Positions 1 through 63,904 are shown, counted from the stretch's first letter. The stretch: 64,000 nt of DNA from Escherichia coli (GCF_003334405.1 NZ_QOWM01000002.1); one strand, 5' to 3'. The notes: generated from the letters alone by a model not told the origin. A program made the numbers and translations.

Positions 1-1839
1 GTTCGCGAGCTGGAACTCCCCGCCACCGGACAACACACCTGGCGATTTGGCCTGACGCGTATGTTGTTGGGCTACGCGATGGAGAGCGCGCAGGGCGAGT
101 GGCAATCGGTTCTACCTTATGATGAATCGAGCGGCTTAATTGCAGAACTGGTGGGGCATCTGGCTTCACTGCTAATGCAGCTAAACATCTGGCGTCGCGG
201 GCTGGCACAGGAGCGTCCGCTGGAAGAGTGGTTGCCGGTTTGTCGCGATATGCTCAACGCCTTCTTCCTGCCGGATGCGGAAACCGAAGCGGCGATGACG
301 CTGATCGAACAACAATGGCAGGCGATTATCGCCGAAGGTTTAGGTGCGCAGTATGGCGACGCGGTGCCGCTGTCACTATTGCGTGATGAACTGGCACAGC
401 GTCTGGATCAAGAACGTATCAGCCAGCGTTTTCTCGCCGGACCGGTTAACATTTGTACTCTGATGCCAATGCGTTCAATTCCGTTCAAAGTGGTTTGCCT
501 GCTGGGAATGAACGACGGCGTTTATCCACGTCAGCTTGCGCCATTGGGCTTTGACCTGATGAGCCAGAAACCGAAGCGTGGCGACCGTAGCCGTCGCGAT
601 GACGACCGCTATCTGTTCCTGGAAGCGTTAATTTCCGCGCAGCAAAAACTCTATATCAGCTATATCGGTCGTTCCATTCAGGATAACAGTGAGCGTTTCC
701 CGTCGGTACTGGTGCAGGAACTGATCGACTACATCGGGCAAAGTCATTATCTACCGGGCGATGAAGCGCTCAACTGTGATGAAAGCGAGGCAAGGGTAAA
801 AGCGCATCTTACTTGCCTCCATACCCGGATGCCGTTTGATCCACAAAACTACCAGCCAGGCGAACGACAAAGCTATGCTCGTGAATGGCTACCTGCGGCC
901 AGCCAGGCTGGTAAAGCACATTCTGAATTTGTTCAGCCGCTGCCGTTTACCTTACCGGAAACCGTGCCGCTGGAAACGCTACAACGATTCTGGGCACATC
1001 CGGTGCGGGCATTTTTCCAGATGCGTTTGCAGGTGAACTTCCGTACTGAAGACAGCGAAATCCCCGACACCGAGCCATTTATTCTGGAAGGACTTAGCCG
1101 TTATCAAATCAATCAGCAGTTATTGAATGCACTGGTTGAGCAGGATGATGCCGAACGCTTGTTCCGCCGCTTCCGAGCGGCAGGGGATTTACCGTATGGC
1201 GCTTTTGGTGAAATTTTCTGGGAAACACAGTGCCAGGAGATGCAGCAGCTTGCCGACAGAGTCATTGCCTGTCGCCAGCCGGGGCAGAGTATGGAAATTG
1301 ATCTCGCCTGCAACGGTGTGCAGATAACTGGCTGGTTGCCGCAGGTGCAGCCGGATGGCCTGTTGCGCTGGCGTCCCTCTTTATTAAGTGTGGCCCAGGG
1401 AATGCAACTTTGGCTGGAACACCTTGTCTACTGTGCCAGCGGTGGTAATGGTGAAAGTCGCCTTTTTCTACGCAAAGACGGCGAGTGGCGTTTTCCGCCG
1501 CTTGCAGCCGAACAGGCTTTGCATTACCTCTCACAACTGATTGAGGGGTATCGTGAAGGAATGTCCGCGCCATTGCTGGTGTTACCTGAAAGTGGCGGCG
1601 CGTGGCTAAAAACCTGTTATGACGCGCAAAACGATGCCATGCTGGATGACGATTCCACGTTGCAAAAAGCCCGTACGAAATTCCTTCAGGCTTACGAAGG
1701 CAACATGATGGTGCGTGGCGAAGGTGATGATATCTGGTATCAAAGGCTCTGGCGGCAATTAACACCAGAGACAATGGAGGCCATCGTTGAACAGTCGCAA
1801 CGTTTCCTGTTACCGCTGTTTCGCTTTAATCAGTCATGA
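1..1839 (+). CDS. recC: RecC, exodeoxyribonuclease V gamma subunit; C-terminal ~612 codons, 5' end lies outside the window
   Basis: Frame is open from base 1 with no stop before the listed ORF (61..1839). Translation is recognised as the RecC C-terminal region, and the context is the recC-ptrA-recB-recD cluster. Confidence 0.9.
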   Translation, partial: VRELELPATGQHTWRFGLTRMLLGYAMESAQGEWQSVLPYDESSGLIAELVGHLASLLMQLNIWRRGLAQERPLEEWLPVCRDMLNAFFLPDAETEAAMTLIEQQWQAIIAEGLGAQYGDAVPLSLLRDELAQRLDQERISQRFLAGPVNICTLMPMRSIPFKVVCLLGMNDGVYPRQLAPLGFDLMSQKPKRGDRSRRDDDRYLFLEALISAQQKLYISYIGRSIQDNSERFPSVLVQELIDYIGQSHYLPGDEALNCDESEARVKAHLTCLHTRMPFDPQNYQPGERQSYAREWLPAASQAGKAHSEFVQPLPFTLPETVPLETLQRFWAHPVRAFFQMRLQVNFRTEDSEIPDTEPFILEGLSRYQINQQLLNALVEQDDAERLFRRFRAAGDLPYGAFGEIFWETQCQEMQQLADRVIACRQPGQSMEIDLACNGVQITGWLPQVQPDGLLRWRPSLLSVAQGMQLWLEHLVYCASGGNGESRLFLRKDGEWRFPPLAAEQALHYLSQLIEGYREGMSAPLLVLPESGGAWLKTCYDAQNDAMLDDDSTLQKARTKFLQAYEGNMMVRGEGDDIWYQRLWRQLTPETMEAIVEQSQRFLLPLFRFNQS

Positions 1840-2014
1840 GTGCTGTATAAAAATTGCGCAATCTATCCGCTTACTTTATGATGCGCACCAGTCACGGACT
1901 GATGGTTATATAAACATAGGCTGACTCGTGCAGCACAAGATTAAATTCTGGCAGATGATTTGCGTTAACGTGTTGAATCTGGACAGAAAATTAAGTTGAT
2001 TATGAGGTCCGTGA

Positions 2015-4903
2015 ATGCCCCGCAGCACCTGGTTCAAAGCATTATTGTTGTTAGTTGCCCTTTGGGCACCCTTAAGTCAGGCAGAAACGGGATGGCAGCC
2101 GATTCAGGAAACCATCCGTAAAAGTGATAAAGATAACCGCCAGTATCAGGCTATACGTCTGGATAACGGTATGGTGGTCTTGCTGGTTTCTGATCCGCAG
2201 GCAGTTAAATCGCTCTCGGCGCTGGTGGTGCCCGTTGGGTCGCTGGAAGATCCCGAGGCGTACCAGGGGCTGGCACATTACCTTGAACATATGAGTCTGA
2301 TGGGGTCGAAAAAGTACCCGCAGGCTGACAGTCTGGCCGAATATCTCAAAATGCACGGCGGTAGTCACAATGCCAGCACTGCGCCGTATCGCACGGCTTT
2401 CTATCTGGAAGTTGAGAACGACGCCTTGCCTGGTGCGGTAGACCGCCTGGCCGATGCTATTGCTGAACCTTTGCTCGACAAGAAATATGCCGAACGTGAG
2501 CGTAATGCGGTGAACGCTGAATTAACCATGGCGCGTACGCGTGACGGGATGCGCATGGCACAGGTCAGCGCAGAAACCATTAACCCGGCACACCCCGGTT
2601 CAAAGTTTTCTGGTGGTAACCTCGAAACTTTAAGCGACAAACCTGGTAATCCGGTGCAGCAGGCGCTGAAAGATTTCCACGAGAAGTACTATTCCGCCAA
2701 TTTGATGAAGGCGGTTATTTACAGTAATAAACCGCTGCCGGAGTTGGCAAAAATGGCGGCGGACACCTTTGGTCGCGTGCCGAACAAAGAGAGCAAAAAA
2801 CCGGAAATCACCGTGCCGGTAGTCACCGACGCGCAAAAGGGCATTATCATTCATTACGTCCCTGCGCTGCCGCGTAAAGTGTTGCGCGTTGAGTTTCGCA
2901 TCGATAACAACTCAGCGAAGTTCCGTAGTAAAACCGATGAATTGATTACCTATCTGATTGGCAATCGCAGCCCAGGTACACTTTCTGACTGGCTGCAAAA
3001 GCAGGGATTAGTTGAGGGCATTAGCGCCAACTCCGATCCTATCGTCAACGGCAACAGCGGCGTATTAGCGATCTCTGCGTCTTTAACCGATAAAGGCCTG
3101 GCTAATCGCGATCAGGTTGTGGCGGCAATTTTTAGCTATCTCAATCTGTTACGTGAAAAAGGCATTGATAAACAATACTTCGATGAACTGGCGAATGTGC
3201 TGGATATCGACTTCCGTTATCCGTCGATCACCCGTGATATGGATTACGTCGAATGGCTGGCAGATACCATGATTCGCGTTCCTGTTGAGCATACGCTGGA
3301 TGCAGTCAATATTGCCGATCGGTACGATGCTAAAGCAGTAAAGGAACGTCTGGCGATGATGGCGCCGCAGAATGCGCGTATCTGGTATATCAGCCCGAAA
3401 GAGCCGCACAACAAAACGGCTTACTTTGTCGATGCGCCGTATCAGGTCGATAAAATCAGCGCACAAACTTTCGCCGACTGGCAGAAAAAAGCCGCCGACA
3501 TTGCGCTCTCTTTGCCAGAGCTTAACCCTTATATTCCTGATGATTTCTCGCTGATTAAGTCAGAGAAGAAATACGACCATCCAGAGCTGATTGTTGATGA
3601 GTCGAATCTGCGCGTGGTGTATGCGCCAAGCCGTTATTTTGCCAGCGAGCCCAAAGCTGATGTCAGCCTGATTTTGCGTAATCCGAAAGCCATGGACAGC
3701 GCCCGCAATCAGGTGATGTTTGCGCTCAATGATTATCTCGCAGGGCTGGCGCTTGATCAGTTAAGCAACCAGGCGTCGGTTGGTGGCATAAGTTTTTCCA
3801 CCAACGCTAACAACGGCCTTATGGTTAATGCTAATGGTTACACCCAGCGTCTGCCGCAGCTGTTCCAGGCATTGCTCGAGGGGTACTTTAGCTATACCGC
3901 TACGGAAGATCAGCTTGAGCAGGCGAAGTCCTGGTATAACCAGATGATGGATTCCGCAGAAAAGGGTAAAGCGTTTGAGCAGGCGATTATGCCCGCGCAG
4001 ATGCTCTCGCAAGTGCCGTACTTCTCGCGAGATGAACGGCGTAAAATTTTGCCCTCCATTACGTTGAAAGAGGTGCTGGCCTATCGCGACGCCTTAAAAT
4101 CAGGGGCTCGACCAGAGTTTATGGTTATCGGCAACATGACCGAGGCCCAGGCAACAACGCTGGCACGCGATGTGCAAAAACAGTTGGGCGCTGATGGTTC
4201 AGAGTGGTGTCGAAACAAAGATGTAGTGGTCGATAAAAAACAATCCGTCATCTTTGAAAAAGCCGGTAACAGCACCGACTCCGCACTGGCAGCGGTATTT
4301 GTACCGACTGGCTACGATGAATACACCAGCTCAGCCTATAGCTCTCTGTTGGGGCAGATCGTACAGCCGTGGTTCTACAATCAGTTGCGTACCGAAGAAC
4401 AATTGGGCTATGCCGTGTTTGCGTTTCCAATGAGCGTGGGGCGTCAGTGGGGCATGGGCTTCCTTTTGCAAAGCAATGATAAACAGCCTTCATTCTTGTG
4501 GGAGCGTTACAAGGCGTTTTTCCCAACCGCAGAGGCAAAATTGCGAGCGATGAAGCCAGATGAGTTTGCGCAAATCCAGCAGGCGGTAATTACCCAGATG
4601 CTGCAGGCACCGCAAACGCTCGGCGAAGAAGCATCGAAGTTAAGTAAAGATTTCGATCGCGGCAATATGCGCTTCGATTCGCGTGATAAAATCGTGGCCC
4701 AGATAAAACTGCTGACGCCGCAAAAACTTGCTGATTTCTTCCATCAGGCGGTGGTCGAGCCGCAAGGCATGGCTATTCTGTCGCAGATTTCCGGCAGCCA
4801 GAACGGGAAAGCCGAATATGTACACCCTGAAGGCTGGAAAGTGTGGGAGAACGTCAGCGCGTTGCAGCAAACAATGCCCCTGATGAGTGAAAAGAATGAG
4901 TGA
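2015..4903 (+). CDS. ptrA: Protease III (pitrilysin), periplasmic zinc metalloprotease
   Basis: 962-aa ORF with an N-terminal signal peptide (MPRSTWFKALLLLVALWAPLSQA) and an HYLEH inverted zinc-binding motif. It sits between recC and recB. Confidence 0.92.
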   Translation: MPRSTWFKALLLLVALWAPLSQAETGWQPIQETIRKSDKDNRQYQAIRLDNGMVVLLVSDPQAVKSLSALVVPVGSLEDPEAYQGLAHYLEHMSLMGSKKYPQADSLAEYLKMHGGSHNASTAPYRTAFYLEVENDALPGAVDRLADAIAEPLLDKKYAERERNAVNAELTMARTRDGMRMAQVSAETINPAHPGSKFSGGNLETLSDKPGNPVQQALKDFHEKYYSANLMKAVIYSNKPLPELAKMAADTFGRVPNKESKKPEITVPVVTDAQKGIIIHYVPALPRKVLRVEFRIDNNSAKFRSKTDELITYLIGNRSPGTLSDWLQKQGLVEGISANSDPIVNGNSGVLAISASLTDKGLANRDQVVAAIFSYLNLLREKGIDKQYFDELANVLDIDFRYPSITRDMDYVEWLADTMIRVPVEHTLDAVNIADRYDAKAVKERLAMMAPQNARIWYISPKEPHNKTAYFVDAPYQVDKISAQTFADWQKKAADIALSLPELNPYIPDDFSLIKSEKKYDHPELIVDESNLRVVYAPSRYFASEPKADVSLILRNPKAMDSARNQVMFALNDYLAGLALDQLSNQASVGGISFSTNANNGLMVNANGYTQRLPQLFQALLEGYFSYTATEDQLEQAKSWYNQMMDSAEKGKAFEQAIMPAQMLSQVPYFSRDERRKILPSITLKEVLAYRDALKSGARPEFMVIGNMTEAQATTLARDVQKQLGADGSEWCRNKDVVVDKKQSVIFEKAGNSTDSALAAVFVPTGYDEYTSSAYSSLLGQIVQPWFYNQLRTEEQLGYAVFAFPMSVGRQWGMGFLLQSNDKQPSFLWERYKAFFPTAEAKLRAMKPDEFAQIQQAVITQMLQAPQTLGEEASKLSKDFDRGNMRFDSRDKIVAQIKLLTPQKLADFFHQAVVEPQGMAILSQISGSQNGKAEYVHPEGWKVWENVSALQQTMPLMSEKNE

Positions 4904-7900
4904 TGTCGCCGAGACACTAGATCCTTTGCGCTTGCCCTTACAGGGTGAGCGCCTGATTGAAGCCTCTGCCGGCACAGGCAAAACCTTTACGATTGCGGCG
5001 CTCTATTTGCGCCTGTTACTTGGACTAGGCGGTTCCGCCGCCTTTCCCCGCCCGCTGACCGTTGAAGAACTGCTGGTGGTCACCTTTACCGAGGCTGCCA
5101 CGGCAGAATTGCGCGGTCGTATCCGTAGCAATATCCACGAGTTGCGCATCGCCTGTCTGCGTGAAACCACCGACAATCCACTGTACGAACGCCTGCTGGA
5201 AGAGATCGACGATAAAGCGCAAGCCGCGCAGTGGTTGTTGTTAGCCGAACGGCAGATGGATGAAGCGGCAGTCTTTACTATTCACGGCTTTTGCCAGCGC
5301 ATGCTCAACCTGAATGCCTTTGAATCCGGCATGCTGTTTGAGCAGCAGCTGATTGAAGATGAGTCTCTGCTACGCTACCAGGCCTGCGCCGATTTCTGGC
5401 GTCGCCACTGCTACCCGCTGCCGCGTGAAATAGCCCAGGTCGTCTTTGAAACCTGGAAAGGGCCGCAGGCGTTGCTGCGCGATATTAATCGTTATCTGCA
5501 AGGCGAAGCGCCGGTTATCAAAGCACCGCCGCCCGATGATGAAACGCTGGCTTCCCGTCACGCGCAAATTGTGGCGCGTATTGATACGGTAAAACAGCAG
5601 TGGCGCGACGCAGTGGGTGAACTGGATGCGCTGATCGAATCTTCTGGTATTGATCGACGCAAGTTTAACCGTAGCAATCAGGCTAAATGGATCGACAAGA
5701 TCAGCGCCTGGGCAGAAGAAGAGACAAACAGTTATCAGTTGCCGGAGTCGCTGGAAAAATTCTCCCAGCGTTTCTTAGAAGATCGCACGAAGGCCGGGGG
5801 GGGAACCCCGCGACATCCACTGTTTGAGGCGATCGATCAACTGCTTGCAGAACCATTGTCGATCCGCGATCTGGTGATCACCCGCGCATTGGCTGAGATC
5901 CGCGAAACAGTAGCGCGTGAAAAACGCCGCCGTGGCGAATTGGGTTTTGATGACATGTTAAGTCGGCTCGATTCCGCGCTGCGTAGCGAAAGCGGTGAGG
6001 TGTTGGCAGCGGCGATCCGTACGCGATTCCCGGTGGCAATGATCGATGAATTTCAGGATACCGACCCCCAGCAGTACCGAATTTTTCGCCGTATCTGGCA
6101 CCATCAGCCGGAAACCGCATTGTTGCTAATTGGCGACCCGAAGCAGGCCATATATGCATTCCGGGGTGCGGATATCTTCACTTATATGAAGGCGCGTAGC
6201 GAAGTTCACGCCCACTACACTTTAGACACCAACTGGCGTTCCGCACCAGGAATGGTGAACAGCGTGAATAAGCTTTTCAGCCAGACTGATGACGCGTTCA
6301 TGTTTCGCGAAATACCGTTTATTCCAGTGAAATCAGCCGGGAAAAATCAGGCGTTACGTTTTGTATTTAAAGGTGAAACACAGCCTGCGATGAAAATGTG
6401 GCTGATGGAAGGCGAAAGCTGCGGCGTTGGCGATTATCAAAGTACCATGGCGCAGGTATGTGCTGCGCAAATCCGCGACTGGCTACAAGCCGGACAGCGG
6501 GGCGAAGCGTTGCTGATGAACGGCGACGACGCGCGTCCGGTGCGTGCTTCGGACATCAGTGTGCTGGTGCGCAGCCGCCAGGAGGCCGCCCAGGTGCGCG
6601 ATGCCTTAACGTTGCTGGAAATCCCTTCCGTTTACCTTTCGAACCGCGACAGTGTTTTTGAAACTCTGGAAGCGCAGGAAATGCTTTGGTTGTTGCAGGC
6701 GGTGATGACGCCCGAACGTGAGAACACCCTGCGTAGTGCGCTGGCAACGTCAATGATGGGGCTGAACGCGCTGGATATCGAAACGCTGAACAATGACGAA
6801 CATGCGTGGGATGTGGTAGTCGAAGAGTTCGATGGTTATCGGCAAATCTGGCGCAAACGTGGCGTTATGCCGATGCTGCGGGCGCTGATGTCGGCGCGTA
6901 ACATTGCTGAAAACTTGCTGGCAACGGCAGGCGGTGAGCGGCGTCTTACCGATATCTTGCATATCAGCGAACTGCTACAAGAAGCCGGAACGCAGCTGGA
7001 AAGTGAACATGCGCTGGTACGCTGGTTATCGCAACATATCCTCGAGCCAGACAGTAATGCCTCCAGCCAACAAATGCGTCTCGAAAGTGATAAACATCTG
7101 GTGCAGATTGTCACGATCCACAAATCGAAAGGGCTGGAATATCCATTGGTCTGGCTGCCGTTTATCACCAATTTCCGCGTCCAGGAGCAGGCGTTTTATC
7201 ACGATCGCCACTCGTTTGAGGCAGTTCTGGATCTTAATGCTGCGCCAGAAAGCGTCGACCTCGCGGAGGCCGAACGTCTGGCGGAAGATCTGCGTTTGCT
7301 TTACGTGGCGCTGACACGTTCGGTTTGGCATTGCAGTCTCGGCGTTGCACCGCTGGTGCGCCGTCGTGGCGATAAAAAAGGTGACACCGACGTCCACCAA
7401 AGTGCGCTCGGGCGTTTGCTGCAAAAAGGGGAACCGCAAGATGCGGCAGGGCTTCGCACCTGTATTGAAGCGTTATGCGATGATGATATTGCCTGGCAAA
7501 CGGCACAAACTGGTGATAACCAACCCTGGCAGGTTAATGATGTTTCTACAGCAGAGCTGAATGCGAAGACGTTACAACGATTGCCCGGCGATAACTGGCG
7601 CGTCACCAGCTACTCTGGTTTGCAACAGCGTGGTCACGGTATCGCCCAGGATTTGATGCCTCGGCTGGATGTCGATGCTGCAGGCGTTGCCAGCGTCGTT
7701 GAAGAACCGACGTTAACACCACATCAGTTTCCGCGCGGTGCGTCACCGGGGACGTTCTTGCACAGTTTGTTTGAAGACCTGGATTTTACCCAGCCGGTTG
7801 ACCCGAACTGGGTGCGGGAAAAACTGGAACTCGGCGGCTTTGAATCGCAGTGGGAACCGGTATTGACCGAGTGGATCACGGCTGTCCTCCAGGCACCTCT

Positions 7901-8438
7901 CAATGAAACCGGCGTAAGCCTGAGTCAACTTTCCGCCCGCAATAAACAGGTGGAGATGGAGTTTTATCTGCCGATTAGTGAACCGCTTATCGCCAGTCAG
8001 CTTGATACGTTAATCCGCCAGTTTGACCCGCTATCCGCAGGCTGCCCGCCGCTGGAGTTCATGCAGGTACGTGGCATGTTAAAAGGCTTTATCGACCTGG
8101 TGTTCCGCCACGAAGGGCGTTATTACCTGCTCGACTATAAATCCAACTGGTTGGGTGAAGACAGTTCGGCTTACACCCAACAGGCTATGGCAGCGGCAAT
8201 GCAGGCACACCGCTATGATCTGCAATATCAGCTTTATACCCTGGCGCTGCATCGTTATCTGCGCCATCGCATTGCTGATTACGACTATGAGCACCACTTT
8301 GGCGGCGTTATTTATCTGTTCCTGCGTGGCGTTGATAAAGAACATCCGCAACAGGGGATTTACACAACCCGACCCAACGCCGGGTTGATTGCCCTGATGG
8401 ATGAGATGTTTGCCGGTATGACCCTGGAGGAGGCGTAA
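4896..8438 (+). CDS. recB: RecB, exodeoxyribonuclease V beta subunit (helicase-nuclease)
   Basis: ORF 4887..8438. The start is placed at the second ATG ([13 protein letters not shown]...), giving 1180 aa. Walker A motif [10 protein letters not shown] is present. The start overlaps the ptrA stop by 8 nt. Confidence 0.92.
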
Positions 8439-10264
8439 TGAAATTGCAAAAGCAATTACTGGAAGCTGTGGAGCACAAACAGCTACGCCCGCTGGATGTG
8501 CAATTTGCCCTGACCGTGGCGGGAGATGAACATCCTGCCGTCACCCTCGCGGCGGCACTGTTAAGTCATGATGCCGGAGAGGGACACGTTTGTTTGCCGC
8601 TTTCACGACTGGAAAATAACGAGGCGTCGCATCCGCTGTTGGCGACCTGTGTCAGTGAAATCGGTGAGCTACAAAATTGGGAAGAATGCTTGCTGGCTTC
8701 TCAAGCGGTCAGCAGGGGAGATGAACCCACGCCGATGATCCTCTGTGGCGATCGTCTTTATTTGAATCGCATGTGGTGTAACGAGCGCACAGTGGCACGC
8801 TTTTTCAACGAAGTGAATCATGCCATTGAGGTTGATGAAGCTCTACTGGCGCAAACCCTGGACAAACTTTTTCCAGTAAGCGATGAAATTAACTGGCAAA
8901 AAGTTGCGGCGGCAGTGGCGCTGACGCGGCGGATCTCGGTGATTTCCGGCGGCCCTGGCACCGGTAAAACGACCACCGTAGCGAAGTTGCTGGCAGCGTT
9001 AATTCAAATGGCCGACGGCGAACGCTGCCGTATCCGTCTGGCTGCACCAACGGGTAAAGCTGCCGCGCGCTTAACCGAATCTCTCGGCAAGGCTTTGCGA
9101 CAGTTACCGCTGACCGATGAACAAAAGAAACGCATTCCGGAAGATGCCAGCACTTTGCACCGATTGCTGGGCGCGCAGCCGGGTAGCCAGCGTTTACGTC
9201 ATCATGCCGGTAACCCGCTGCATCTTGATGTGCTGGTGGTAGATGAAGCGTCAATGATCGATCTGCCTATGATGTCGAGACTGATCGACGCTTTGCCCGA
9301 TCATGCGCGAGTGATCTTTCTCGGCGATCGTGATCAACTGGCCTCGGTTGAGGCTGGGGCTGTGCTGGGCGATATCTGCGCTTATGCCAACGCGGGCTTT
9401 ACCGCCGAGCGTGCCAGGCAGCTAAGCCGCCTGACGGGGACTCACGTTCCGGCAGGAACCGGCACAGAAGCGGCATCTTTGCGCGACAGTCTCTGCCTGC
9501 TGCAAAAAAGCTATCGTTTCGGCAGCGATTCTGGCATTGGTCAGTTAGCTGCGGCGATCAACCGTGGTGATAAAACGGCAGTGAAAACCGTTTTTCAGCA
9601 GGATTTTACTGATATCGAAAAACGGCTTTTACAGAGCGGCGAAGATTATATTGCGATGCTTGAGGAAGCTCTTGCGGGTTACGGACGTTATCTGGATCTG
9701 CTGCAAGCGCGTGCCGAGCCGGATTTAATCATTCAGGCGTTCAATGAGTACCAGCTTTTGTGCGCCCTGCGGGAAGGGCCGTTTGGCGTGGCTGGACTGA
9801 ATGAGCGAATTGAGCAGTTTATGCAACAGAAGCGCAAAATTCATCGTCATCCGCACTCTCGTTGGTACGAAGGTCGACCGGTGATGATTGCCCGTAATGA
9901 CAGCGCGCTTGGGTTGTTTAATGGCGATATCGGTATTGCGCTGGATCGCGGGCAGGGGACGCGCGTCTGGTTTGCGATGCCGGACGGCAATATTAAGTCT
10001 GTGCAACCGAGTCGCTTGCCAGAGCACGAAACTACGTGGGCGATGACGGTACATAAATCGCAGGGATCGGAGTTCGACCATGCGGCGTTGATTTTGCCGA
10101 GCCAACGCACGCCGGTAGTAACGCGAGAGCTGGTTTATACCGCGGTGACCCGCGCGCGTCGCCGTCTGTCGCTGTATGCCGATGAGCGCATATTAAGTGC
10201 GGCAATCGCCACTCGTACTGAGCGGCGCAGTGGTCTGGCGGCGTTGTTTAGTTCACGGGAATAA
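8438..10264 (+). CDS. recD: RecD, exodeoxyribonuclease V alpha subunit
   Basis: 608-aa ORF with Walker A motif [10 protein letters not shown]. Its ATG overlaps the recB TAA stop (TAATG). Confidence 0.93.
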
Positions 10265-13215: not shown

Positions 13216-13292
<77 letters not shown>

Positions 13293-14633: not shown

Positions 14634-14816
14634 AGGGTGAGGGGTAACCTCACATCCTGATTATTGACTAAGTGCGCGTTGTTCATGCCGGATGCGGCGT
14701 GAACGCCTTATCCGGCCTACAAATCATGCAAATCCAAAATATTGCAGGAGTTATGTAGGCCTGATAAGCGTAGCGCATCAGGCATTTATGCGTTTAGGGT
14801 GAGGGATAACCTCGCC
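14634..14816. repeat. BIME: two inverted REP elements flanked by 21-bp direct repeats
   Basis: REP gccggatgcggcgtgaacgccttatccggcctac (14688..14720) and inverted REP gtaggcctgataagcgtagcgcatcaggc (14755..14783). Flanking repeats agggtgaggggtaacctcaca (14634..14654) and agggtgagggataacctcgcc (14796..14816). Confidence 0.7.
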
Positions 14817-15693: not shown

Positions 15694-16137
15694 TTAAACC
15701 TGCTTCGTCGCAGCGATAATCGCCTCGCTTAACGCATTTAACCCCTGGCTGCGTGAGGCGCTAAGCTGCGCACGTAATCCCAGCTCATCAAACAATGCCA
15801 GTGGTGACTGTGCCTGCAACTCGGCGGCGGTTTTCCCCTCAACGGCAGTCAACAACACCGCCAGCAGGCCGCGCACAATGCGCCCTTCGCTGTCGCCAAA
15901 GAAATGCATTTTGCCGTTTTCAGCCACTGTATATCCCAGCCAGACGCGGTTTTCGCATCCGGCAATCTCTTTAGCCTGCGCTTTTAACTCGTCTGGCAAT
16001 GCCGGAAGCTGTTTCCCCAGCATGATCAACTGGCGATATTTATCTTCCCATTGCGTCAACGGTGCGAAGGTATTGCGTAACGTTTCTGCGGTTACGGTTG
16101 TGCCGAACGGATGTCCGGCGAATTGCGGGTTTGTCAT
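15694..16137 (-). CDS. csdE: Sulfur acceptor protein CsdE (SufE-like)
   Basis: 147-aa ORF, SufE family. Its ATG overlaps the csdA stop by 1 nt. Confidence 0.88.
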
Positions 16138-17342
16138 TAATCCACCAATAATTCCAGCGCGCGGTCAACGGCATTCACCAGCGCATCCACATCACTCTTT
16201 GTATTATATGGCGCAAAAGAGGCGCGCAGTGTGCCGGTTACGCCTAATTCTGCCAGTAGCGGCTGAGCGCAATGCTGCCCGGCCCGCAGGGCAATACCGT
16301 ACTCCGCCAGCAGCGTCACCATATCGCTATGATGAACGCCAGCAAAATCAAAGGCCAGCAGGCTGGAATCCTGGCAGCGGAATGAACGAAAGCCGGGACG
16401 TTTCGCCAGCGCATCTTCCGCCAGCGTTGCTAAGCTACGGCTCCAGCTTTCGGCCTGGTTGATATCGTAATCTGCCAGCCATTCCAGCGCCGCGCTTAAT
16501 CCTATGACACCAGCGACATTTGGCGTTCCAGCTTCCAGTTTCCACGGCGCAGATTGAGTCGTGAAGCCGTCAAAACTCACTTCGTGAACCATTTTGCCGC
16601 CGCCCAGCCAGGGCGACATCGCCTCCAGCAGTTCTGATTTACCATACAGCACGCCGATACCTGTCGGGCCATACAGTTTGTGACCTGAAAAAGCATAGAA
16701 ATCAATATCCAGTTGCTGAACATCCGCGGGGAAATGCACTGCCCCCTGAGCACCATCAACCATCACCACCATCCCGGCTGAATGAGCAAAGGTAATCGCT
16801 CGCGCCAGATCCGGGCAACCGCCAGTAACGTTCGACATCTGACCCAACGCCAGAATCCGACTACGGGGAGTAATCAGTTCTGGCAACAAATCGACATCCG
16901 GCAGTCGCTGCGCATTAAGCGGCAATTTCACCACTTTGGCTCCAGTTTGTTGGGCGACCATCAGCCAGGGGACGAGGTTGGCGTGGTGTTCTGCCACGCT
17001 GACAATAATCTCATCGCCCGGTTGCAGACGCGGACGCGCATAGCATTGTGCCACCATGTTGATGGATTCAGTGGTGCCGCGCGTCCAGACGATAGTTTTA
17101 TCATCCGGTGCATTCAGTAATTGCGCCACTTTCTCTCGTGCAGCTTCATAACGCGCGGTCAGGCGTTGGGCTTCGGCAAACTGGCTGCGATGGACGTTTC
17201 CGGCGCTCAGACTGTAAAACTGTTGGGTGGCTTCAACCACGGCTTCAGGTTTAAGCGCGGTCGCGGCGCTGTCGAGATAGACGCCCGCATCCTGTAGTGC
17301 GGGAAACTGGGCGCGAAACTGCGCGGGATTAAAAACGTTCAT
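16137..17342 (-). CDS. csdA: Cysteine sulfinate desulfinase / cysteine desulfurase CsdA
   Basis: ORF 16137..17378. Start placed at [16 protein letters not shown], giving 401 aa. Class V aminotransferase with an SGHK pyridoxal-phosphate lysine motif. Confidence 0.9.
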
Positions 17343-17777: not shown

Positions 17778-17983
17778 AAAAAAAAGCACCGCAATTAGGC
17801 GGTGCTACATTAATCACTATGGACAGACAGGGTAAATGTACAGGAAGTGAAAAAAGGTAGCTTTGCTACCATGGTCTGAATCGCAGACCAATTGCAAACA
17901 CAACAACACAACATCACAACCGTAAGCCAAAAGTTCACCAGAACACGCATTCCGATAAAACTTTTCGTTCCGGCTCAGGAAGT
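17778..17983 (-). ncRNA. gcvB: GcvB small regulatory RNA
   Basis: The reverse complement matches the gcvB sequence as I recall it, from 5' ACTTCCTGAGCCGGAACG to the terminator hairpin (gcaccgcctaattgcggtgc) and U-tract. It is divergent from gcvA, with a TATAGT -10 just upstream on the minus strand. Confidence 0.85.
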
Positions 17984-19047: not shown

Positions 19048-19443
19048 ATGACCAGCCGTTTTATGCTGATTTTCGCCGCCATTAGCGGCTTCATTTTTGT
19101 GGCTCTGGGCGCTTTTGGCGCGCATGTGTTAAGTAAAACCATGGGGGCCGTTGAGATGGGCTGGATCCAGACCGGCCTCGAATACCAGGCGTTTCATACG
19201 CTGGCGATCTTAGGTCTGGCGGTGGCAATGCAGCGTCGCATCAGTATCTGGTTTTACTGGAGTAGCGTTTTCCTCGCGTTAGGCACGGTGTTGTTCAGCG
19301 GCAGCCTTTATTGCCTGGCGCTGTCCCATCTGCGTTTGTGGGCGTTTGTCACTCCGGTTGGCGGCGTGAGCTTCCTCGCGGGCTGGGCGTTAATGTTAGT
19401 TGGTGCTATCCGTTTAAAGCGCAAGGGCGTAAGTCATGAATAA
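19048..19443 (+). CDS. ygdD: Inner membrane protein YgdD (DUF423)
   Basis: 131-aa hydrophobic ORF. Overlaps the rlmM start. Confidence 0.82.
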
Positions 19444-36144: not shown

Positions 36145-36520
36145 TTCTATCTTCGTCGACAGGGAGTCAGACAACGAAGTGAACATCAGGATGATGACAC
36201 TTCTGCAGGACACACCAGGATGGTGTTTCAGGGAAAGGCTTCTGGATGAAGCGAAGAGGATGACGCAGGACGCGTTAAAGGACACCTCCAGGATGGAGAA
36301 TGAGAACCGGTCAGGATGATTCGGTGGGTCAGGAAGGCCAGGGACACTTCAGGATGAAGTATCACATCGGGGTGGTGTGAGCAGGAAGCAATAGTTCAGG
36401 ATGAACGATTGGCCGCAAGGCCAGAGGAAAAGTTGTCAAGGATGAGCAGGGAGCAACAAAAGTAGCTGGAATGCTGCGAAACGAACCGGGAGCGCTGTGA
36501 ATACAGTGCTCCCTTTTTTT
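36145..36520 (+). ncRNA. csrB: CsrB, CsrA-sequestering small RNA
   Basis: About 370 nt with roughly 20 reiterated GGA motifs (caggatg, aggaca, cagggag). Ends in a terminator hairpin gggagcgctg..cagtgctccc plus ttttttt (36488..36520). The 5' end is approximate. Confidence 0.85.
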
Positions 36521-36565
36521 ATTCCTGCTATCCTTCGCGGCAGTTTTTCTTATTGAGGTTGCTTT

Positions 36566-36895
36566 ATGACCACTCATGACCGCGTTCGTCTCCAGTTGCA
36601 GGCGCTTGAAGCGTTACTGCGTGAACATCAGCACTGGCGAAACGATGAACCCCAGCCGCATCAATTTAATAGTACCCAACCGTTCTTTATGGACACCATG
36701 GAACCACTGGAGTGGTTGCAGTGGGTGCTGATCCCGCGAATGCACGATTTGTTAGATAACAAACAGCCGTTACCGGGCGCTTTTGCCGTTGCACCCTATT
36801 ATGAAATGGCGCTGGCGACGGACCATCCGCAACGCGCGCTTATTCTGGCTGAGCTGGAAAAACTGGATGCTCTTTTTGCGGATGATGCGAGCTAA
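36566..36895 (+). CDS. yqcC: DUF446 protein YqcC
   Basis: 109-aa ORF. Its stop overlaps the truC start (TAATG). Confidence 0.82.
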   Translation: MTTHDRVRLQLQALEALLREHQHWRNDEPQPHQFNSTQPFFMDTMEPLEWLQWVLIPRMHDLLDNKQPLPGAFAVAPYYEMALATDHPQRALILAELEKLDALFADDAS

Positions 36896-37677
36896 TGCTG
36901 GAAATACTCTATCAGGATGAATGGCTGGTTGCGGTAAATAAACCCTCCGGCTGGCTGGTTCACCGCAGCTGGCTGGATCGCGACGAGAAAGTAGTGGTCA
37001 TGCAAACCGTGCGTGACCAGATAGGCCAGCATGTTTTTACTGCTCATCGTCTGGACCGACCCACTTCTGGTGTGTTGTTGATGGGATTATCCAGCGAGGC
37101 CGGACGGCTGCTGGCACAACAGTTTGAACAGCACCAAATCCAGAAACGTTACCATGCGATTGTGCGCGGCTGGTTGATGGAAGAAGCGGTGCTGGATTAT
37201 CCACTGGTGGAAGAACTGGACAAAATCGCTGATAAATTTGCCCGCGAAGATAAAGGCCCGCAGCCAGCAGTGACGCATTATCGCGGTCTGGCGACCGTAG
37301 AAATGCCGGTAGCGACCGGACGTTACCCGACCACGCGCTACGGCCTGGTGGAACTGGAGCCGAAAACCGGACGCAAACATCAGCTTCGCCGACATCTTGC
37401 CCATTTGCGTCATCCGATTATTGGCGATAGCAAACATGGCGATTTACGCCAGAATCGCAGCGGTGCTGAGCATTTTGGCCTCCAGCGGTTAATGCTACAT
37501 GCCAGTCAGTTGTCATTGACGCATCCTTTTACTGGCGAGCCGCTGACTATTCACGCGGGCCTGGACGACACCTGGATGCAGGCGTTATCACAATTTGGCT
37601 GGCGCGGTCTGCTTCCTGAAAATGAAAGGGTTGAGTTCAGTGCGCCATCGGGTCAGGATGGAGAGATAAGTTCCTAA
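36895..37677 (+). CDS. truC: tRNA pseudouridine65 synthase TruC
   Basis: 260-aa ORF, RluA-family pseudouridine synthase with catalytic HRLDRPTSG motif. Confidence 0.9.
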
Positions 37678-49339: not shown

Positions 49340-49588
49340 ATGATCCACAGTAGCGTAAAGCGTTGGGGAAATTCACCGGCGGTGCGGATCCCGGCTACGT
49401 TAATGCAGGCGCTCAATCTGAATATTGATGATGAAGTGAAGATTGACCTGGTGGATGGCAAATTAATTATTGAGCCAGTGCGTAAAGAGCCCGTATTTAC
49501 GCTTGCTGAACTGGTCAACGACATCACGCCGGAAAACCTCCACGAGAATATCGACTGGGGAGAGCCGAAAGATAAGGAAGTCTGGTAA
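49340..49588 (+). CDS. mazE: Antitoxin MazE (type II toxin-antitoxin)
   Basis: 82-aa ORF beginning [25 protein letters not shown]. Its stop overlaps the mazF ATG. Confidence 0.92.
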
Positions 49589-49923
49589 TGGTAAGCCGAT
49601 ACGTACCCGATATGGGCGATCTGATTTGGGTTGATTTTGACCCGACAAAAGGTAGCGAGCAAGCTGGACATCGTCCAGCTGTTGTCCTGAGTCCTTTCAT
49701 GTACAACAACAAAACAGGTATGTGTCTGTGTGTTCCTTGTACAACGCAATCAAAAGGATATCCGTTCGAAGTTGTTTTATCCGGTCAGGAACGTGATGGC
49801 GTAGCGTTAGCTGATCAGGTAAAAAGTATCGCCTGGCGGGCAAGAGGAGCAACGAAGAAAGGAACAGTTGCCCCAGAGGAATTACAACTCATTAAAGCCA
49901 AAATTAACGTACTGATTGGGTAG
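49588..49923 (+). CDS. mazF: Toxin MazF, ACA-specific mRNA interferase
   Basis: 111-aa ORF beginning [35 protein letters not shown]. Confidence 0.93.
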   Translation: MVSRYVPDMGDLIWVDFDPTKGSEQAGHRPAVVLSPFMYNNKTGMCLCVPCTTQSKGYPFEVVLSGQERDGVALADQVKSIAWRARGATKKGTVAPEELQLIKAKINVLIG

Positions 49924-56271: not shown

Positions 56272-56544
56272 GTGTTCCCCGCGCCAGCGGGGATAAACCG
56301 GCAAAAACCGGGCAATCGCAAAAAGGCGTAATGTGTTCCCCGCGCCAGCGGGGATAAACCTGTGTTTGCGGCATTAACGCTCACCAGCATTTCGTGTTCC
56401 CCGCGCCAGCGGGGATAAACCGAGCAGATACACGGCTTTGTATTCCGTGCGCCCGTGTTCCCCGCGCCAGCGGGGATAAACCGGAGCCTGACGAGACTAC
56501 TGAGGCCGTTCTGTCGAGTTCCCCGCGCCAGCGGGGATAAACCA
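56272..56544 (+). CRISPR. Type I-E CRISPR array, 5 repeats of 29 nt and 4 spacers of 32 nt (61-bp period)
   Basis: Repeats start at 56272, 56333, 56394, 56455 and 56516, with consensus gtgttccccgcgccagcggggataaaccg. The last repeat reads gagttccccgcgccagcggggataaacca. Spacers: 56301..56332 gcaaaaaccgggcaatcgcaaaaaggcgtaat; 56362..56393 gtgtttgcggcattaacgctcaccagcatttc; 56423..56454 agcagatacacggctttgtattccgtgcgccc; 56484..56515 gagcctgacgagactactgaggccgttctgtc. Confidence 0.95.
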
Positions 56545-56998: not shown

Positions 56999-57136
56999 AT
57001 ATTCCTTGTAAAAACAGGGATAAACCGAACTAGTTAAAGTTTTTATTATGTTCCCTGCATCAGCGGGGATAAACCGGACTTGTTATCATTTTTTAAGTTG
57101 TCGAACTTATGTTCCCCGCGTCAGCGGGGATAACCA
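56999..57136 (+). CRISPR. Degenerate CRISPR remnant: one truncated and two mutated I-E-like repeats
   Basis: Partial repeat ending cagggataaaccg at 57027; atgttccctgcatcagcggggataaaccg at 57048..57076; a 32-nt spacer at 57077..57108; atgttccccgcgtcagcggggataacca at 57109..57136. Same strand and 61-bp spacing as the main array. Confidence 0.6.
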
Positions 57137-57182: not shown

Positions 57183-58439
57183 TTACGCATTCGACCAGCT
57201 CTGGATCGAATCCACATTCCCCAATTCCCCATGCATCACTTCATACGATTTTTTCAGGATCACATCAGTATGTTTGGTTAGGTCTTTGAAAATGCCTTTA
57301 TTCATCGCGTCGTAGCGTTTGGCATTGCTCTCAATCGGTATAAAGATATCTTTCACGCGAACCATGTTATCGACAGCCGTTGCGTAATCCGGGTATAGCC
57401 CCAGACCTACCGCTGTATTAATCGCTGCCCCCAGGCTTGCACAACCGTTAATGGCGTTACGTCGTGCCGGAAGGTTGAACACGTCGGCAAAAATCTGCAT
57501 AAACAGATCGCTGTTCGAACCGCCGCCAGTAATGATCACATGCTTCGCAAAGTGATTCATTTCATTACACATATTGTCGTAATTGTTCTTCAGCGTCAGC
57601 GCCACGCTTTCCAGTATCGAACGATATATCCATGCGTAATCCATGCTGGAATCAAAGCCGATCATAATCCCGCGTTTGTACGGTTCCCACGGATTGGTCA
57701 GCCAGTCCAGCACCGTCATCAGACCATTACAGCCTGGCGGCACACAAGAAGCTTTTTTGTTGAGTAAATCTTCCGGTGAAAGATCCTGCGCCCTGGCATC
57801 CTGAATTAACGACTCGCCTAGCATGTCGCGCAGCCAGCTCACCGTCCACATGCCTTTGCGAATACCGTAACCTTCATACAGCAATGTTTGCGGAATAGAA
57901 GACATAATCGGCCAGTACGCTACTGGATCTTTCGGCAGTGCTTTGCCGTTCATCATCAATGCGATGTAAGTGCCAAGAGAAATTACCGCCGTTTCATCAT
58001 CCAGTAATCCGGCCCCCAGAGCTTCTACCGGTTTATCACTGGTGGTACAAACAACCGGCAGTCCTGCCGGGAAATGTGTCGCCAGTGCGGCTTGTGGTGT
58101 GATATGTCCGAGGACGGTGCCAGGCATTTGCACATCAAACAGCATATGACGGGGGATATTAAACTTATCCATTACCGCAGCATCTTCGCTCCATGCCCAG
58201 CTCTTATAATCCACCGGCCACTGACCAAAATAGTTGGCGATATTGTCTTTAAACTCGCCGGTTAACCGCCCGCCGGAAAGATTTTTGCTGCCGGGGATTT
58301 CAGCGCGTTCCAGTAACAAAACGGATAAACCCGCTCGCGCGCAGCGTAACGCGCAAGCGGTGCCTGCAATACCGGCACCAATAATAATAATGTCGCAGTC
58401 GTCTTCCATGTCATGCCCCAGATATCCAGAACACAACAC
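57183..58439 (-). CDS. Hybrid ORF: FAD-binding Rossmann N-terminus (about 50 aa) fused to the C-terminal ~365 aa of an FGGY sugar kinase; probable deletion-fusion product
   Basis: 418-aa ORF. The N-terminus DIIIIGAGIAGTACALRCARAGLSVLLLER is a classic GxGxxG dinucleotide-binding fold. The rest is FGGY-like (VISLGTYIALM ... HVIITGGGSNSDLFMQIFADVFNLPARR) and lacks the N-terminal ATP-binding motif of that family. Alternative start at the ATG at 58409. Confidence 0.6.
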   Translation of the reverse strand: MLCSGYLGHDMEDDCDIIIIGAGIAGTACALRCARAGLSVLLLERAEIPGSKNLSGGRLTGEFKDNIANYFGQWPVDYKSWAWSEDAAVMDKFNIPRHMLFDVQMPGTVLGHITPQAALATHFPAGLPVVCTTSDKPVEALGAGLLDDETAVISLGTYIALMMNGKALPKDPVAYWPIMSSIPQTLLYEGYGIRKGMWTVSWLRDMLGESLIQDARAQDLSPEDLLNKKASCVPPGCNGLMTVLDWLTNPWEPYKRGIMIGFDSSMDYAWIYRSILESVALTLKNNYDNMCNEMNHFAKHVIITGGGSNSDLFMQIFADVFNLPARRNAINGCASLGAAINTAVGLGLYPDYATAVDNMVRVKDIFIPIESNAKRYDAMNKGIFKDLTKHTDVILKKSYEVMHGELGNVDSIQSWSNA

Positions 58440-59167: not shown

Positions 59168-60967
59168 ATGACGACACAGGTCCCACCTTCCGCGTTGCTT
59201 CCGTTGAACCCGGAGCAACTGGCACGCCTTCAGGCGGCCACGACCGATTTAACTCCCACCCAGCTTGCCTGGGTTTCTGGCTATTTCTGGGGCGTACTCA
59301 ATCAGCAGCCTGCTGCGCTTGCAGCGACGCCAGCGCCAGCCGCAGAAATGCCGGGTATAACTATTATCTCCGCCTCGCAAACCGGCAATGCGCGCCGGGT
59401 TGCTGAAGCATTACGTGATGATTTATTAGCAGCAAAACTGAACGTTAAGCTGGTGAACGCGGGCGACTATAAATTCAAACAAATCGCCAGCGAAAAACTG
59501 CTCATCGTAGTGACGTCAACGCAAGGGGAAGGGGAACCGCCGGAAGAAGCCGTCGCGCTGCATAAGTTCCTGTTCTCCAAAAAAGCGCCAAAGCTGGAAA
59601 ACACCGCGTTTGCCGTGTTTAGCCTCGGCGATAGCTCTTATGAATTTTTCTGCCAGTCCGGGAAAGATTTCGACAGCAAGCTGGCGGAACTGGGTGGTGA
59701 ACGCCTGCTCGACCGTGTCGATGCCGATGTTGAATACCAGGCTGCTGCCAGCGAGTGGCGCGCCCGCGTGGTTGATGCGCTTAAATCGCGTGCGCCTGTC
59801 GCGGCACCTTCGCAATCCGTCGCTACTGGCGCGGTAAATGAAATCCACACCAGCCCGTACAGCAAAGACGCGCCGCTGGTGGCTAGCCTCTCTGTTAACC
59901 AGAAAATTACCGGGCGTAACTCTGAAAAAGACGTTCGCCATATCGAAATTGACTTAGGTGACTCGGGCCTGCGTTACCAGCCGGGTGACGCGCTGGGCGT
60001 CTGGTATCAGAACGATCCGGCACTGGTGAAAGAACTTGTCGAACTGCTGTGGCTGAAAGGCGATGAACCTGTCACCGTCGAGGGCAAAACGTTGCCTCTG
60101 AACGAAGCGCTACAGTGGCACTTCGAACTGACCGTCAACACCGCCAACATTGTTGAGAATTACGCCACGCTTACCCGCAGTGAAACACTGCTGCCGCTGG
60201 TGGGCGATAAAGCGAAGTTACAGCATTACGCCGCGACGACGCCGATTGTTGACATGGTGCGTTTCTCCCCGGCACAGCTTGATGCCGAAGCGCTAATTAA
60301 TCTGCTGCGCCCGCTGACGCCGCGTCTCTATTCCATTGCCTCCTCGCAGGCGGAAGTCGAGAACGAAGTACACGTCACCGTTGGTGTGGTGCGTTACGAC
60401 GTGGAAGGCCGCGCCCGTGCCGGTGGTGCCTCCAGCTTCCTCGCTGACCGCGTGGAAGAAGAGGGCGAAGTCCGCGTATTTATCGAACATAACGATAACT
60501 TCCGCCTGCCAGCCAATCCAGAAACCCCGGTGATTATGATTGGCCCAGGCACCGGCATCGCGCCGTTCCGCGCCTTTATGCAGCAACGTGCTGCCGATGA
60601 AGCGCCGGGAAAAAACTGGCTGTTCTTTGGCAACCCGCACTTTACGGAAGATTTCCTCTACCAGGTGGAGTGGCAGCGCTACGTCAAAGAGGGTGTGCTG
60701 ACGCGGATCGATCTCGCCTGGTCGCGCGACCAAAAAGAAAAAGTTTACGTACAAGACAAACTGCGCGAACAGGGCGCGGAGCTGTGGCGCTGGATCAATG
60801 ACGGTGCCCACATTTATGTCTGCGGTGACGCTAATCGCATGGCGAAAGACGTTGAGCAGGCACTTCTGGAAGTGATTGCCGAATTTGGTGGCATGGACAC
60901 CGAAGCGGCGGATGAATTTTTAAGTGAGCTGCGCGTAGAGCGCCGTTATCAGCGAGATGTCTACTAA
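59168..60967 (+). CDS. cysJ: Sulfite reductase [NADPH] flavoprotein alpha subunit
   Basis: 599-aa ORF with flavodoxin-like and FAD/NADPH-binding regions. Its stop overlaps the cysI start (TAATG). Confidence 0.93.
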
Positions 60968-63487: not shown

Positions 63488-63751
63488 ATATTGCCGGATA
63501 AATTAAACGCCTCTGTCAGAAATGATGGGGGCGTTTTTATTTTGCGAGCAGTATTCCTGATTTTAAACGTGAACGCCGCTGGAAGAATTATCAGGTATAG
63601 AATGGCGTCGGGTGCTTGAGGCTGTCTGGCGTTAAGCATTCGCGAGGTTCCAGATGGACAAAAGCCCCAGGCGATATTTCTATCAACCTGAGGCTTACGT
63701 TCGAACCCAAACAATTCGAATGTTAGTCTCTTCTTTGCAGGGAGGCAAGAC

Positions 63752-63904
63752 ATGCTGACAAAATATGCCCTTGTGGCAATCATAGTGCTGTGTTTTACAG
63801 TACTGGGATTCACGCTGATGGTAGGCGACTCGTTGTGTGAGTTGAGTATCAGAGAACGTGGTATGGAGTTTAAGGCAGTTCTCGCTTACGAATCGAAGAA
63901 GTAG
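63752..63904 (+). CDS. Hok/Gef-family type I toxin (50 aa), HokE-like
   Basis: Not in the ORF track because it is under 60 aa. I translated it by hand: [51 protein letters not shown] ggagg SD sits 7-11 nt upstream. It has one transmembrane helix and the conserved SLCE...R and AYES motifs of the Hok family. Confidence 0.7.

Follow-up and report, generated by a model that had tools for sequence, protein, structure and literature searches.

Termination-reinitiation has been described at stop-start overlaps of -4, -1 or -8 nt between co-directional neighbouring genes carried on one mRNA, such as trpE-trpD and trpB-trpA and the hyfHI, astDB and menDH pairs (Huber et al. 2019). Three classes of stop-to-start spacing are enriched for this kind of coupling, and -1 and -8 nt are two of them (PMC12548453; PMC10666635), the -8 spacing being less favourable than spacings from -4 to +3 (PMC12548453). 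Among E. coli pairs overlapping at the -4 spacing, four of five were found to be coupled, and removal of the Shine-Dalgarno (SD) motif usually reduces reinitiation at E. coli overlaps (PMC6728339). Coupling by RNA unfolding, as in MS2 coat-lysis and atpHA, also involves a downstream start within or beside the upstream coding region.

A close relative of the locus considered here is the recC-recB-recD operon of most bacteria, in which recC abuts recB, with an SD, and the orthologous recB and recD genes form the same chain of stop-start overlaps. E. coli and its relatives differ in carrying ptrA between recC and recB; in E. coli the recC-ptrA gap is 175 nt and has its own promoter, and the recB start overlaps ptrA instead. 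The ptrA-recB-recD genes have been treated as one operon with a single promoter upstream of ptrA, and coupling between ptrA and recB was already put forward in the same 2025 study (PMC12342828).

We have analysed the junctions of this operon within a 64,000-nt stretch of DNA (the window) from a non-K-12 E. coli strain (GCF_003334405.1, NZ_QOWM01000002.1), with the gene order recC'-ptrA-recB-recD to cysJIH. A sequence-only reading of the window had proposed tight translational coupling across ptrA-recB-recD.

Results

Overlapping junctions in the window

Junction geometry, SD strength, cross-species conservation and gene identity are direct observations. PtrA, RecB and RecD match their equivalog models end to end, each with a score above the cut-off, and the ptrA-recB-recD region is 100% identical to that of many E. 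coli genomes, being found in 5426 of 5426. In the closest E. coli genome matches, there is approximately 9.5 kb of additional DNA between queD and queE.

The overlaps listed in the sequence-only reading are borne out at every coordinate (Table 1), both for the recB ATG that lies 8 nt inside ptrA, which the open reading frames and RefSeq also support, and for the 1-nt overlaps at recB/recD, csdA/csdE, yqcC/truC, mazE/mazF and cysJ/cysI. Starts and stops are identical in the RefSeq annotation of K-12 and strain FORC 064; in K-12 the recB ATG is at position 2956003, the recD ATG at 2952461 and the GTG upstream of recB at 2956012. A second -8 overlap, ygdD/rlmM, was absent from that list, as were fucK/fucU and gudP/gudX, each of which has a 1-nt gap. 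The same reading took the overlaps to mark operon boundaries, which is wrong: the junctions sit within operons, and the known co-transcribed units that hold them include ptrA-recB-recD, csdAE, mazEF and cysJIH.

Of the 33 adjacent CDS pairs in the window that run in the same direction, nine (27%) have a spacing from -8 to +6 nt, as do 707 of 2,987 such pairs in K-12 (24%) (PMC10666635). Chance does not account for the overlaps, yet they are not unusual either. The only mild oddity is that the -1 class has five members in the window and the -4 class, the commonest genome-wide, has none. Every pair has been tabulated with an identical distance in a 2023 supplement (PMC10666635); the overlaps are already known, being annotated in RefSeq, tabulated, and members of the best-known class of prokaryotic gene junction.

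Table 1. Genes, junctions and regulatory or candidate elements, in window coordinates
Feature	Position	Strand	Details and basis
Hfq-binding site, 36 nt, ptrA 5' UTR	1965..2000	+	exact match to the sequence in PMC12342828; occurs once in the window
ptrA (pitrilysin/protease III), first gene of the operon	2015..4903	+	ORF; RefSeq; NCBIfam equivalog NF011681, 1852 bits; TGA 4901-4903
In-frame GTG, alternative recB start, 3 codons upstream of the ATG	4887..4889	+	ORF list; judged not to be the start
ptrA/recB overlap, 8 nt (ATGAGTGA), spacing -8, no upstream SD	4896..4903	+	recB ATG 4896-4898; ptrA TGA 4901-4903
recB (exodeoxyribonuclease V beta subunit), 1180 aa	4896..8438	+	NCBIfam NF008128, 2336 bits; PDB 1w36_B match, residues 1-1180
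5-codon ORF (MSPRH*), opened by TGATG at the ptrA stop	4903..4920	+	frame differs from recB; read from sequence
recD SD (GGAGGAGG), within the last codons of recB	8426..8433	+	anti-SD duplex -12.1 kcal/mol
recB/recD TAATG, spacing -1, shared base 8438	8436..8440	+	recB TAA 8436-8438; recD ATG 8438-8440
recD (exodeoxyribonuclease V alpha subunit), 608 aa	8438..10264	+	NCBIfam NF008127, 1140 bits; full-length PDB 1w36_D match
csdA/csdE TAATG, shared base 16137	16135..16139	-	sequence; NCBIfam CsdA and CsdE equivalogs; -1 in PMC10666635 supplement
ygdD/rlmM overlap, 8 nt (ATGAATAA), geometry as ptrA/recB	19436..19443	+	sequence; -8 in PMC10666635 supplement
yqcC/truC TAATG	36893..36897	+	sequence; PMC10666635 supplement
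mazE/mazF TAATG	49586..49590	+	sequence; NCBIfam; PMC10666635 supplement
cysJ/cysI TAATG	60965..60969	+	sequence; PMC10666635 supplement

Shine-Dalgarno strength and conservation of the junctions

SD strength was expressed as the energy of the duplex with the anti-SD, in kcal/mol, for the 47 genes of the window and for a background. The SD of recD is the strongest of the 47 (-12.1), while that of recB (-2.5) is at background level (background median -2.2; window gene median -6.2). The motif is moderate in mazF (-6.3) and borderline in csdE (-4.9), and the duplexes of truC (-3.3) and cysI (-3.6) are weak. An SD-like motif in the 3' end of the upstream gene, which is usual at coupled pairs though not obligatory, is present for recD and lacking for recB.

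Conservation was assessed in 120 loci from other species. A recB-recD overlap of 1, 4 or 8 nt is found in 47 of 57 species (-4 in 43, -1 in two, -8 in two), and is kept despite changes of stop codon and register, reading TAATG in E. coli, TGATG in E. albertii and ATGA in Citrobacter. The recC-recB spacing is -4 or -1 in 64 of 82 loci (54 and 10, respectively), and ptrA overlaps recB in all eight of its junctions (-8 in three, -4 in three, -1 in two). In independently published distances, the median for RecB@RecD is -4 across 318 genomes and that for MazE@MazF is also -4 (PMC10666635 supplement).

At overlapping junctions in other species, the median SD energy is -7.8 kcal/mol for recC-recB, -7.9 for recB-recD and -4.9 for ptrA-recB, with a background of -2.7; an SD-like motif of -6 kcal/mol or stronger is kept at 85% of recB-recD junctions. 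The ptrA-recB and recC-recB junctions differ in SD strength (Mann-Whitney p = 6e-5), in a comparison where the eight ptrA loci represent one clade. Where ptrA is upstream of recB an overlap is retained, with a weak SD or none, and Escherichia and Citrobacter combine the -8 overlap with a background-level SD. Relative to the recC-recB-recD operon of most bacteria, the SD of recB appears to have been lost in E. coli (-2.5 versus a median of -7.8 kcal/mol).

RNA structure

Folds of 100 nt around the two recB junctions show nothing unusual (z = -0.17 for ptrA/recB and +1.04 for recB/recD), and the minimum-energy structure leaves the recB start unpaired. The opening energies of the nine overlapping or abutting starts are no different from those of the other 38 genes (p = 0.31). 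On the basis of the 47 opening energies and the folds of both recB junctions, we reject RNA structure occluding the downstream starts as a mechanism. In this respect the locus differs from MS2 coat-lysis and atpHA; because no stable structure occludes the recB or recD start, reinitiation is favoured over a mechanism based on RNA unfolding. Terminator-like sites are no commoner than in shuffled sequences, and a crude consensus scan finds neither a terminator nor a sigma-70 promoter near the two recB junctions.

Discussion

We consider it likely that these are ordinary stop-start overlaps on one mRNA, coupled by termination-reinitiation, and that the two recB junctions are built differently. As in the described termination-reinitiation pairs, adjacent genes run in the same direction, probably on one mRNA, with spacings of -1 or -8, the recD SD lies inside the upstream coding sequence, and recB/recD, mazE/mazF and cysJ/cysI encode partners in the same complex. 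They differ in that the E. coli pairs tested by experiment have the -4 spacing and coupling of those in the window is predicted, and in that ptrA/recB has no SD and encodes functionally unrelated proteins. That reinitiation occurs at these junctions, and with what efficiency, is what we infer. A ribosome ending the upstream gene would already be placed on the next start codon and could restart there, and downstream output would then be tied to upstream translation.

At recB/recD, where UAAUG follows GGAGGAGG, the hand-over would be assisted by the SD and would probably be efficient, holding two subunits of RecBCD in step. At ptrA/recB, with the AUG set 8 nt back from the UGA and without an SD, few ribosomes would be expected to load independently, and reinitiation would need a short backward move and would probably be inefficient. 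RecB would then be made in a small proportion relative to PtrA, in keeping with a reported level of under 10 molecules of RecB per cell (PMC12342828). A point against this reading is that overlaps of -8 without an SD may support almost no reinitiation. PtrA and RecB are not partners in one complex. Only the recB-recD junction looks built for efficient coupled translation. The strong SD and conserved overlap of recD, as opposed to the SD-less start of recB, make the proposed tight coupling plausible for recB-recD; for ptrA-recB it is unproven, and such coupling is probably inefficient.

It could instead be that the overlaps are by-products of a compact genome without functional coupling, with stops drifting, genes extending and ribosomes loading independently at each start, although we regard this as unlikely. 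The one uncoupled pair of the five tested in E. coli, bioBF, initiates de novo in spite of its overlap (PMC6728339), and synthesis of MazE outpaces that of MazF from a single transcript in spite of the -1 overlap between them (PMC5535158), so that an overlap does not equate to matched output. For yqcC/truC and ygdD/rlmM, matched amounts are not known to be needed, and the strong recD SD, with its unstructured start region, could equally serve independent loading of free 30S subunits. Such loading is, however, hard to picture at recB, which lacks an SD. Drift would also have to account for the retention of the recB/recD and recC/recB overlaps across Proteobacteria, Actinobacteria, Verrucomicrobia and Myxococcota, for a spacing that is nearly always -4, -1 or -8 and stays so when stop codon and register change, and for the 4.5-fold enrichment of short overlaps among E. 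coli pairs encoding subunits of the same complex (PMC10666635).

Two further explanations concern internal promoters and the recB start codon. It is very unlikely that recB, recD or both are expressed mainly from internal promoters in the upstream gene, which would make the overlap with the upstream reading frame irrelevant to their translation. A sigma-28 holoenzyme peak detected by genomic SELEX lies within recB (K-12 position 2952958, approximately window position 7941), about 0.5 kb upstream of recD, and would allow a separate recD transcript (PMC5493296). However, a deletion in the ptrA 5' UTR halves recB mRNA (2025 study, PMC12342828). In addition, a crude consensus scan, restricted to sigma-70-like promoters and thus not covering sigma-28, finds none in ptrA 3' of 2352 or in recB, and only one site in 8.8 kb as against 6.4 expected by chance. 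In early cloning work recB was reportedly expressed from fragments without the ptr promoter. Hardly credible is the reading in which recB begins at GTG 4887 and not at ATG 4896, which would lengthen the overlap to 17 nt (-17) and make stop-start reinitiation unlikely. In favour of this GTG are its place as the earliest start codon in the open frame and its conservation in E. albertii and Citrobacter, but it is confined to Escherichia and Citrobacter; in the other five Enterobacterales genera it is missing, and a single ATG precedes the Walker A glutamate by 20-22 codons (21 in E. coli). An in-frame stop directly precedes the aligned recB ATG in Superficieibacter, the E. coli GTG follows closely on two in-frame stops and likewise has no preceding SD, and the GTGAAAAGA triplets are ptrA codons (..S-E-K-N..) in another frame. 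The ATG is the start adopted in RefSeq, in NCBIfam (profile positions 2-1179) and in every PDB entry, although these follow annotation and are not independent evidence. We reject the GTG as the recB start on comparative grounds.

Position 4887 is also the coordinate at which the sequence-only reading began its feature, without mentioning the GTG. Its remark that overlaps help in choosing between starts was sound, as ATG 4896 aligns with the sole ATG available in other Enterobacterales. When a start codon overlaps the upstream stop and other species keep that arrangement, it can be taken, as a matter of routine, as a good indication of the true start, and the starts of recB and recD both fit this.

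Within the preferred reading of coupling by termination-reinitiation, a more specific and more tentative possibility concerns ptrA itself. In those Enterobacterales with ptrA placed between recC and recB, an SD-less overlap may have replaced the SD-assisted recC/recB hand-over of most bacteria and come to act as a fixed attenuator, setting RecB below 10 molecules per cell and providing the route by which Hfq acts on it; only a small share of the ribosomes translating ptrA would then enter recB. Deletion of the Hfq-binding site in the ptrA 5' UTR approximately doubles the number of RecB proteins per mRNA, from 7.9 to 16.3 (PMC12342828), as is expected if translation of recB follows that of ptrA. 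Coupling would thus explain why Hfq, when bound at the ribosome-binding site of ptrA, reduces the RecB protein made from each mRNA. The doubling could also come about through altered folding or decay of the mRNA in place of coupling. PtrA, RecB and RecD have no entries in the Mori 2021 supplements and are not mentioned in the text of the Ribo-RET preprint.

The 5-codon ORF opened at the ptrA stop (Table 1) is a putative competing reinitiation site and, judging from its position, could divert further reinitiating ribosomes from recB. It is not kept as a short ORF in Citrobacter, and we reject it as a conserved element.

As a discovery the overlaps are of little significance, since they belong to standard E. 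coli annotation. The point of some interest is the difference between the two junctions, recB-recD having a strong SD and deep conservation, whereas ptrA-recB is SD-less and lineage-specific. This contrast offers a simple candidate explanation both for the scarcity of RecB and for how regulation at the ptrA leader may reach RecB.

Gene identities and overlaps

A 5-kb piece around ptrA-recB-recD is matched in every complete E. coli genome (5,426 of 5,426), in many with 100% identity, and the matched genes are annotated ptrA, recB and recD. Our gene map, built by placing annotated K-12 MG1655 and FORC 064 genes on the window, reads recC' (1..1839), ptrA, recB, recD, argA, amiC ... mazEFG, pyrG, eno, cysJIH; the window, from a non-K-12 strain, is the reverse complement of K-12 2.89-2.96 Mb. 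Full-length NCBIfam equivalog models confirm PtrA, RecB, RecD, CsdA, CsdE, TruC, MazE and MazF, and the crystallised RecB and RecD proteins are matched end to end by the window translations.

All overlap coordinates of the sequence-only reading are right: sequence and RefSeq annotation agree, with identical starts and stops. Absent from it were a second overlap of 8 nt (spacing -8), at ygdD/rlmM, and the 1-nt gaps of fucK/fucU and gudP/gudX. Its description of the overlaps as operon boundaries is wrong, as these junctions lie inside operons.

Coordinates of features in the window (Rfam matches are those above the gathering score)
Feature	Position	Strand	Basis
Published Hfq site in front of ptrA	1965..2000		
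ptrA/recB overlap, 8 nt	ptrA TGA 4901-4903, recB ATG 4896	+	sequence
Five-codon ORF (MSPRH*)	4903..4920	+	
GGAGGAGG upstream of recD	8426..8433		
recB/recD TAATG	recB TAA 8436-8438, recD ATG 8438-8440	+	sequence
Initiator tRNA-Met gene	13216..13292	-	
ES036, downstream of mltA	14720..14762	+	Rfam
csdA/csdE TAATG	16139..16135	-	sequence
GcvB	17778..17983	-	Rfam
ygdD/rlmM overlap	19436..19443	+	
CsrB	36164..36523	+	Rfam
yqcC/truC TAATG	36893..36897	+	sequence
mazE/mazF TAATG	49586..49590	+	sequence
Type I-E CRISPR array	56272..56543		
Two degenerate CRISPR repeats	57048..57136		
418-aa chimeric ORF	57183..58439	-	
cysJ/cysI TAATG	60965..60969	+	sequence
sok-like antitoxin RNA, adjoining cysH	63610..63767	+	Rfam

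The overlaps are typical, not accidents. Of the co-directional adjacent CDS pairs of the window, 9 of 33 (27%) have spacings of -8 to +6 nt, as do 707 of 2,987 such pairs in K-12 (24%) (PMC10666635); according to reviews, three spacings are enriched across all prokaryotes: -4, -1 and -8 (PMC12548453). The supplement of PMC10666635 lists ptrA/recB and ygdD/rlmM at -8, csdA/csdE and yqcC/truC at -1, and recB/recD, mazE/mazF and cysJ/cysI at -1 and marked as complexes, distances equal to those in the window for all seven pairs; the feature is therefore already known, and it is ordinary. All five -1 overlaps are TAATG. None of the 33 pairs in the 64 kb has a -4 (ATGA) overlap, the commonest class in E. 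coli, probably by small-number chance.

Other features of the window

The chimeric ORF matches FAD-dependent oxidoreductases over its first ~70 residues (the 5' end of ygcN, nt 1-147 of which map to 58409..58263) and FGGY sugar kinases over residues 58-390 (the 3' part of ygcE). It appears that ~9.5 kb (ygcO..yqcE), present between queD and queE in K-12 and the closest complete genomes, was lost, giving an in-frame ygcN'-'ygcE fusion. The CRISPR array adjoins queE and has five repeats (GTGTTCCCCGCGCCAGCGGGGATAAACC) with a 61-nt period; the degenerate repeats lie ~500 nt beyond it. K-12 and FORC 064 have three tandem initiator tRNA-Met genes (metZ, metW, metV) where the window has one and is 220 nt shorter.

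The recB start codon

The sequence-only reading overlooked an in-frame GTG at 4887 as an alternative recB start. Two stop codons lie immediately 5' of it in the recB frame, and Val-Lys-Arg is therefore the only possible RecB extension. In other Enterobacterales only one ATG is present, 20-22 codons ahead of the glutamate of Walker A (E. coli, 21), and in Superficieibacter a stop codon directly precedes it. Because the ATG is single elsewhere and stops bound the extension, the start is, on this comparative evidence, ATG 4896, and the suggestion that overlaps can guide the choice of start holds for recB.

Shine-Dalgarno strength and RNA structure

Anti-Shine-Dalgarno (SD) duplex energies were computed by pairing the 16S rRNA tail with positions -20 to -3 of each gene start. 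The motif upstream of recD scores -12.1 kcal/mol, the strongest among 47 genes, and that of mazF is moderate (-6.3); csdE is borderline (-4.9), whereas cysI (-3.6) and truC (-3.3) are weak and recB (-2.5) is at the level of random positions (median -2.2; genes of the window, -6.2). None of these starts is hidden by RNA structure: the energy needed to open the nine starts that overlap or abut a neighbouring gene is no different from that of the other genes (p = 0.31), and neither recB junction is more stably folded than shuffled sequence (z = -0.17 and +1.04).

Junctions across species

The RecB Walker A motif, written as a degenerate DNA pattern, gave 120 loci from as many other species. Among the 57 reaching recD, recB-recD spacing is -4 in 43, -1 in 2 and -8 in 2, the rest being mostly other short overlaps, and recB ends in TGA in 53. 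The register differs yet the overlap is kept (TAATG in E. coli, TGATG in E. albertii, ATGA in Citrobacter); the median RecB/RecD distance over 318 genomes is also -4 (PMC10666635 supplement).

Upstream, recC directly precedes recB in 82 loci (-4 in 54, -1 in 10). In eight Enterobacterales ptrA does, overlapping in 8/8: E. albertii and two Citrobacter have a spacing of -8, three others (Superficieibacter, Yersinia and Ca. Pantoea persica) one of -4, and both Enterobacter sp. Ag1 and a MAG one of -1. Median SD energies are -7.8 kcal/mol for recC-recB (77% at or below -6), -7.9 for recB-recD (85%), -4.9 for ptrA-recB (1/8) and -2.7 for background (9%). ptrA-recB and recC-recB differ at p = 6e-5, but all eight ptrA loci belong to a single clade, and the difference is therefore close to a single evolutionary event. 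Vibrionaceae (Vibrio, Aliivibrio; loci L008, L017, L055, L056, L075, L077, L089, L110) are an exception to nearly all other sampled bacteria, with 200-500 nt between recC and recB and no overlap; in the three that reach recD (L075, L077, L110), recB and recD still overlap or lie close together (-8, -1 or +2).

Coupling at the two recB junctions

The observation of the sequence-only reading is confirmed and its interpretation partly supported: tight coupling is plausible at recB/recD, with its strong SD and conserved overlap, and overstated at ptrA/recB, which lacks an SD and is spaced at -8. Overlap can occur without coupling, as in bioBF (PMC6728339), or without equal output, as in mazEF, where one transcript yields MazE at a higher rate than MazF (PMC5535158).

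The recB AUG, which has no SD, is placed 5 nt ahead of the ptrA stop codon, so that free 30S subunits would find little to bind and a terminating ribosome would need a backward step to reach it. In experiments, SD removal usually lowers reinitiation (PMC6728339), and coupling is weaker at more negative spacings (PMC12548453). We infer that translation of recB amounts to a small share of that of ptrA, which would fit the fewer than 10 RecB molecules per cell and the doubling of RecB protein per mRNA upon deletion of the Hfq site (PMC12342828). The TGATG at the ptrA stop also opens, at ATG 4903, the five-codon ORF, out of the recB frame; it could be a rival to the recB AUG for reinitiating ribosomes, and in Citrobacter it is not conserved as a short ORF.

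It is possible that recD is partly expressed independently, from a candidate sigma-28 promoter within recB: a genomic-SELEX peak of sigma-28 RNA polymerase (K-12 2952958, window ~7941; PMC5493296) lies ~0.5 kb upstream of recD and leaves room for some such expression. A consensus scan found no sigma-70-like promoter near either recB junction, and terminator-like sites were no more frequent than in shuffles. In the coupled reading of recB/recD, which is the most likely one, a ribosome terminating at the UAA would already be on the AUG, held there by the strong SD, the same arrangement as in classical SD-assisted termination-reinitiation. Deep conservation across species speaks for the importance of this overlap, which plausibly keeps two subunits of the same enzyme at matching levels.
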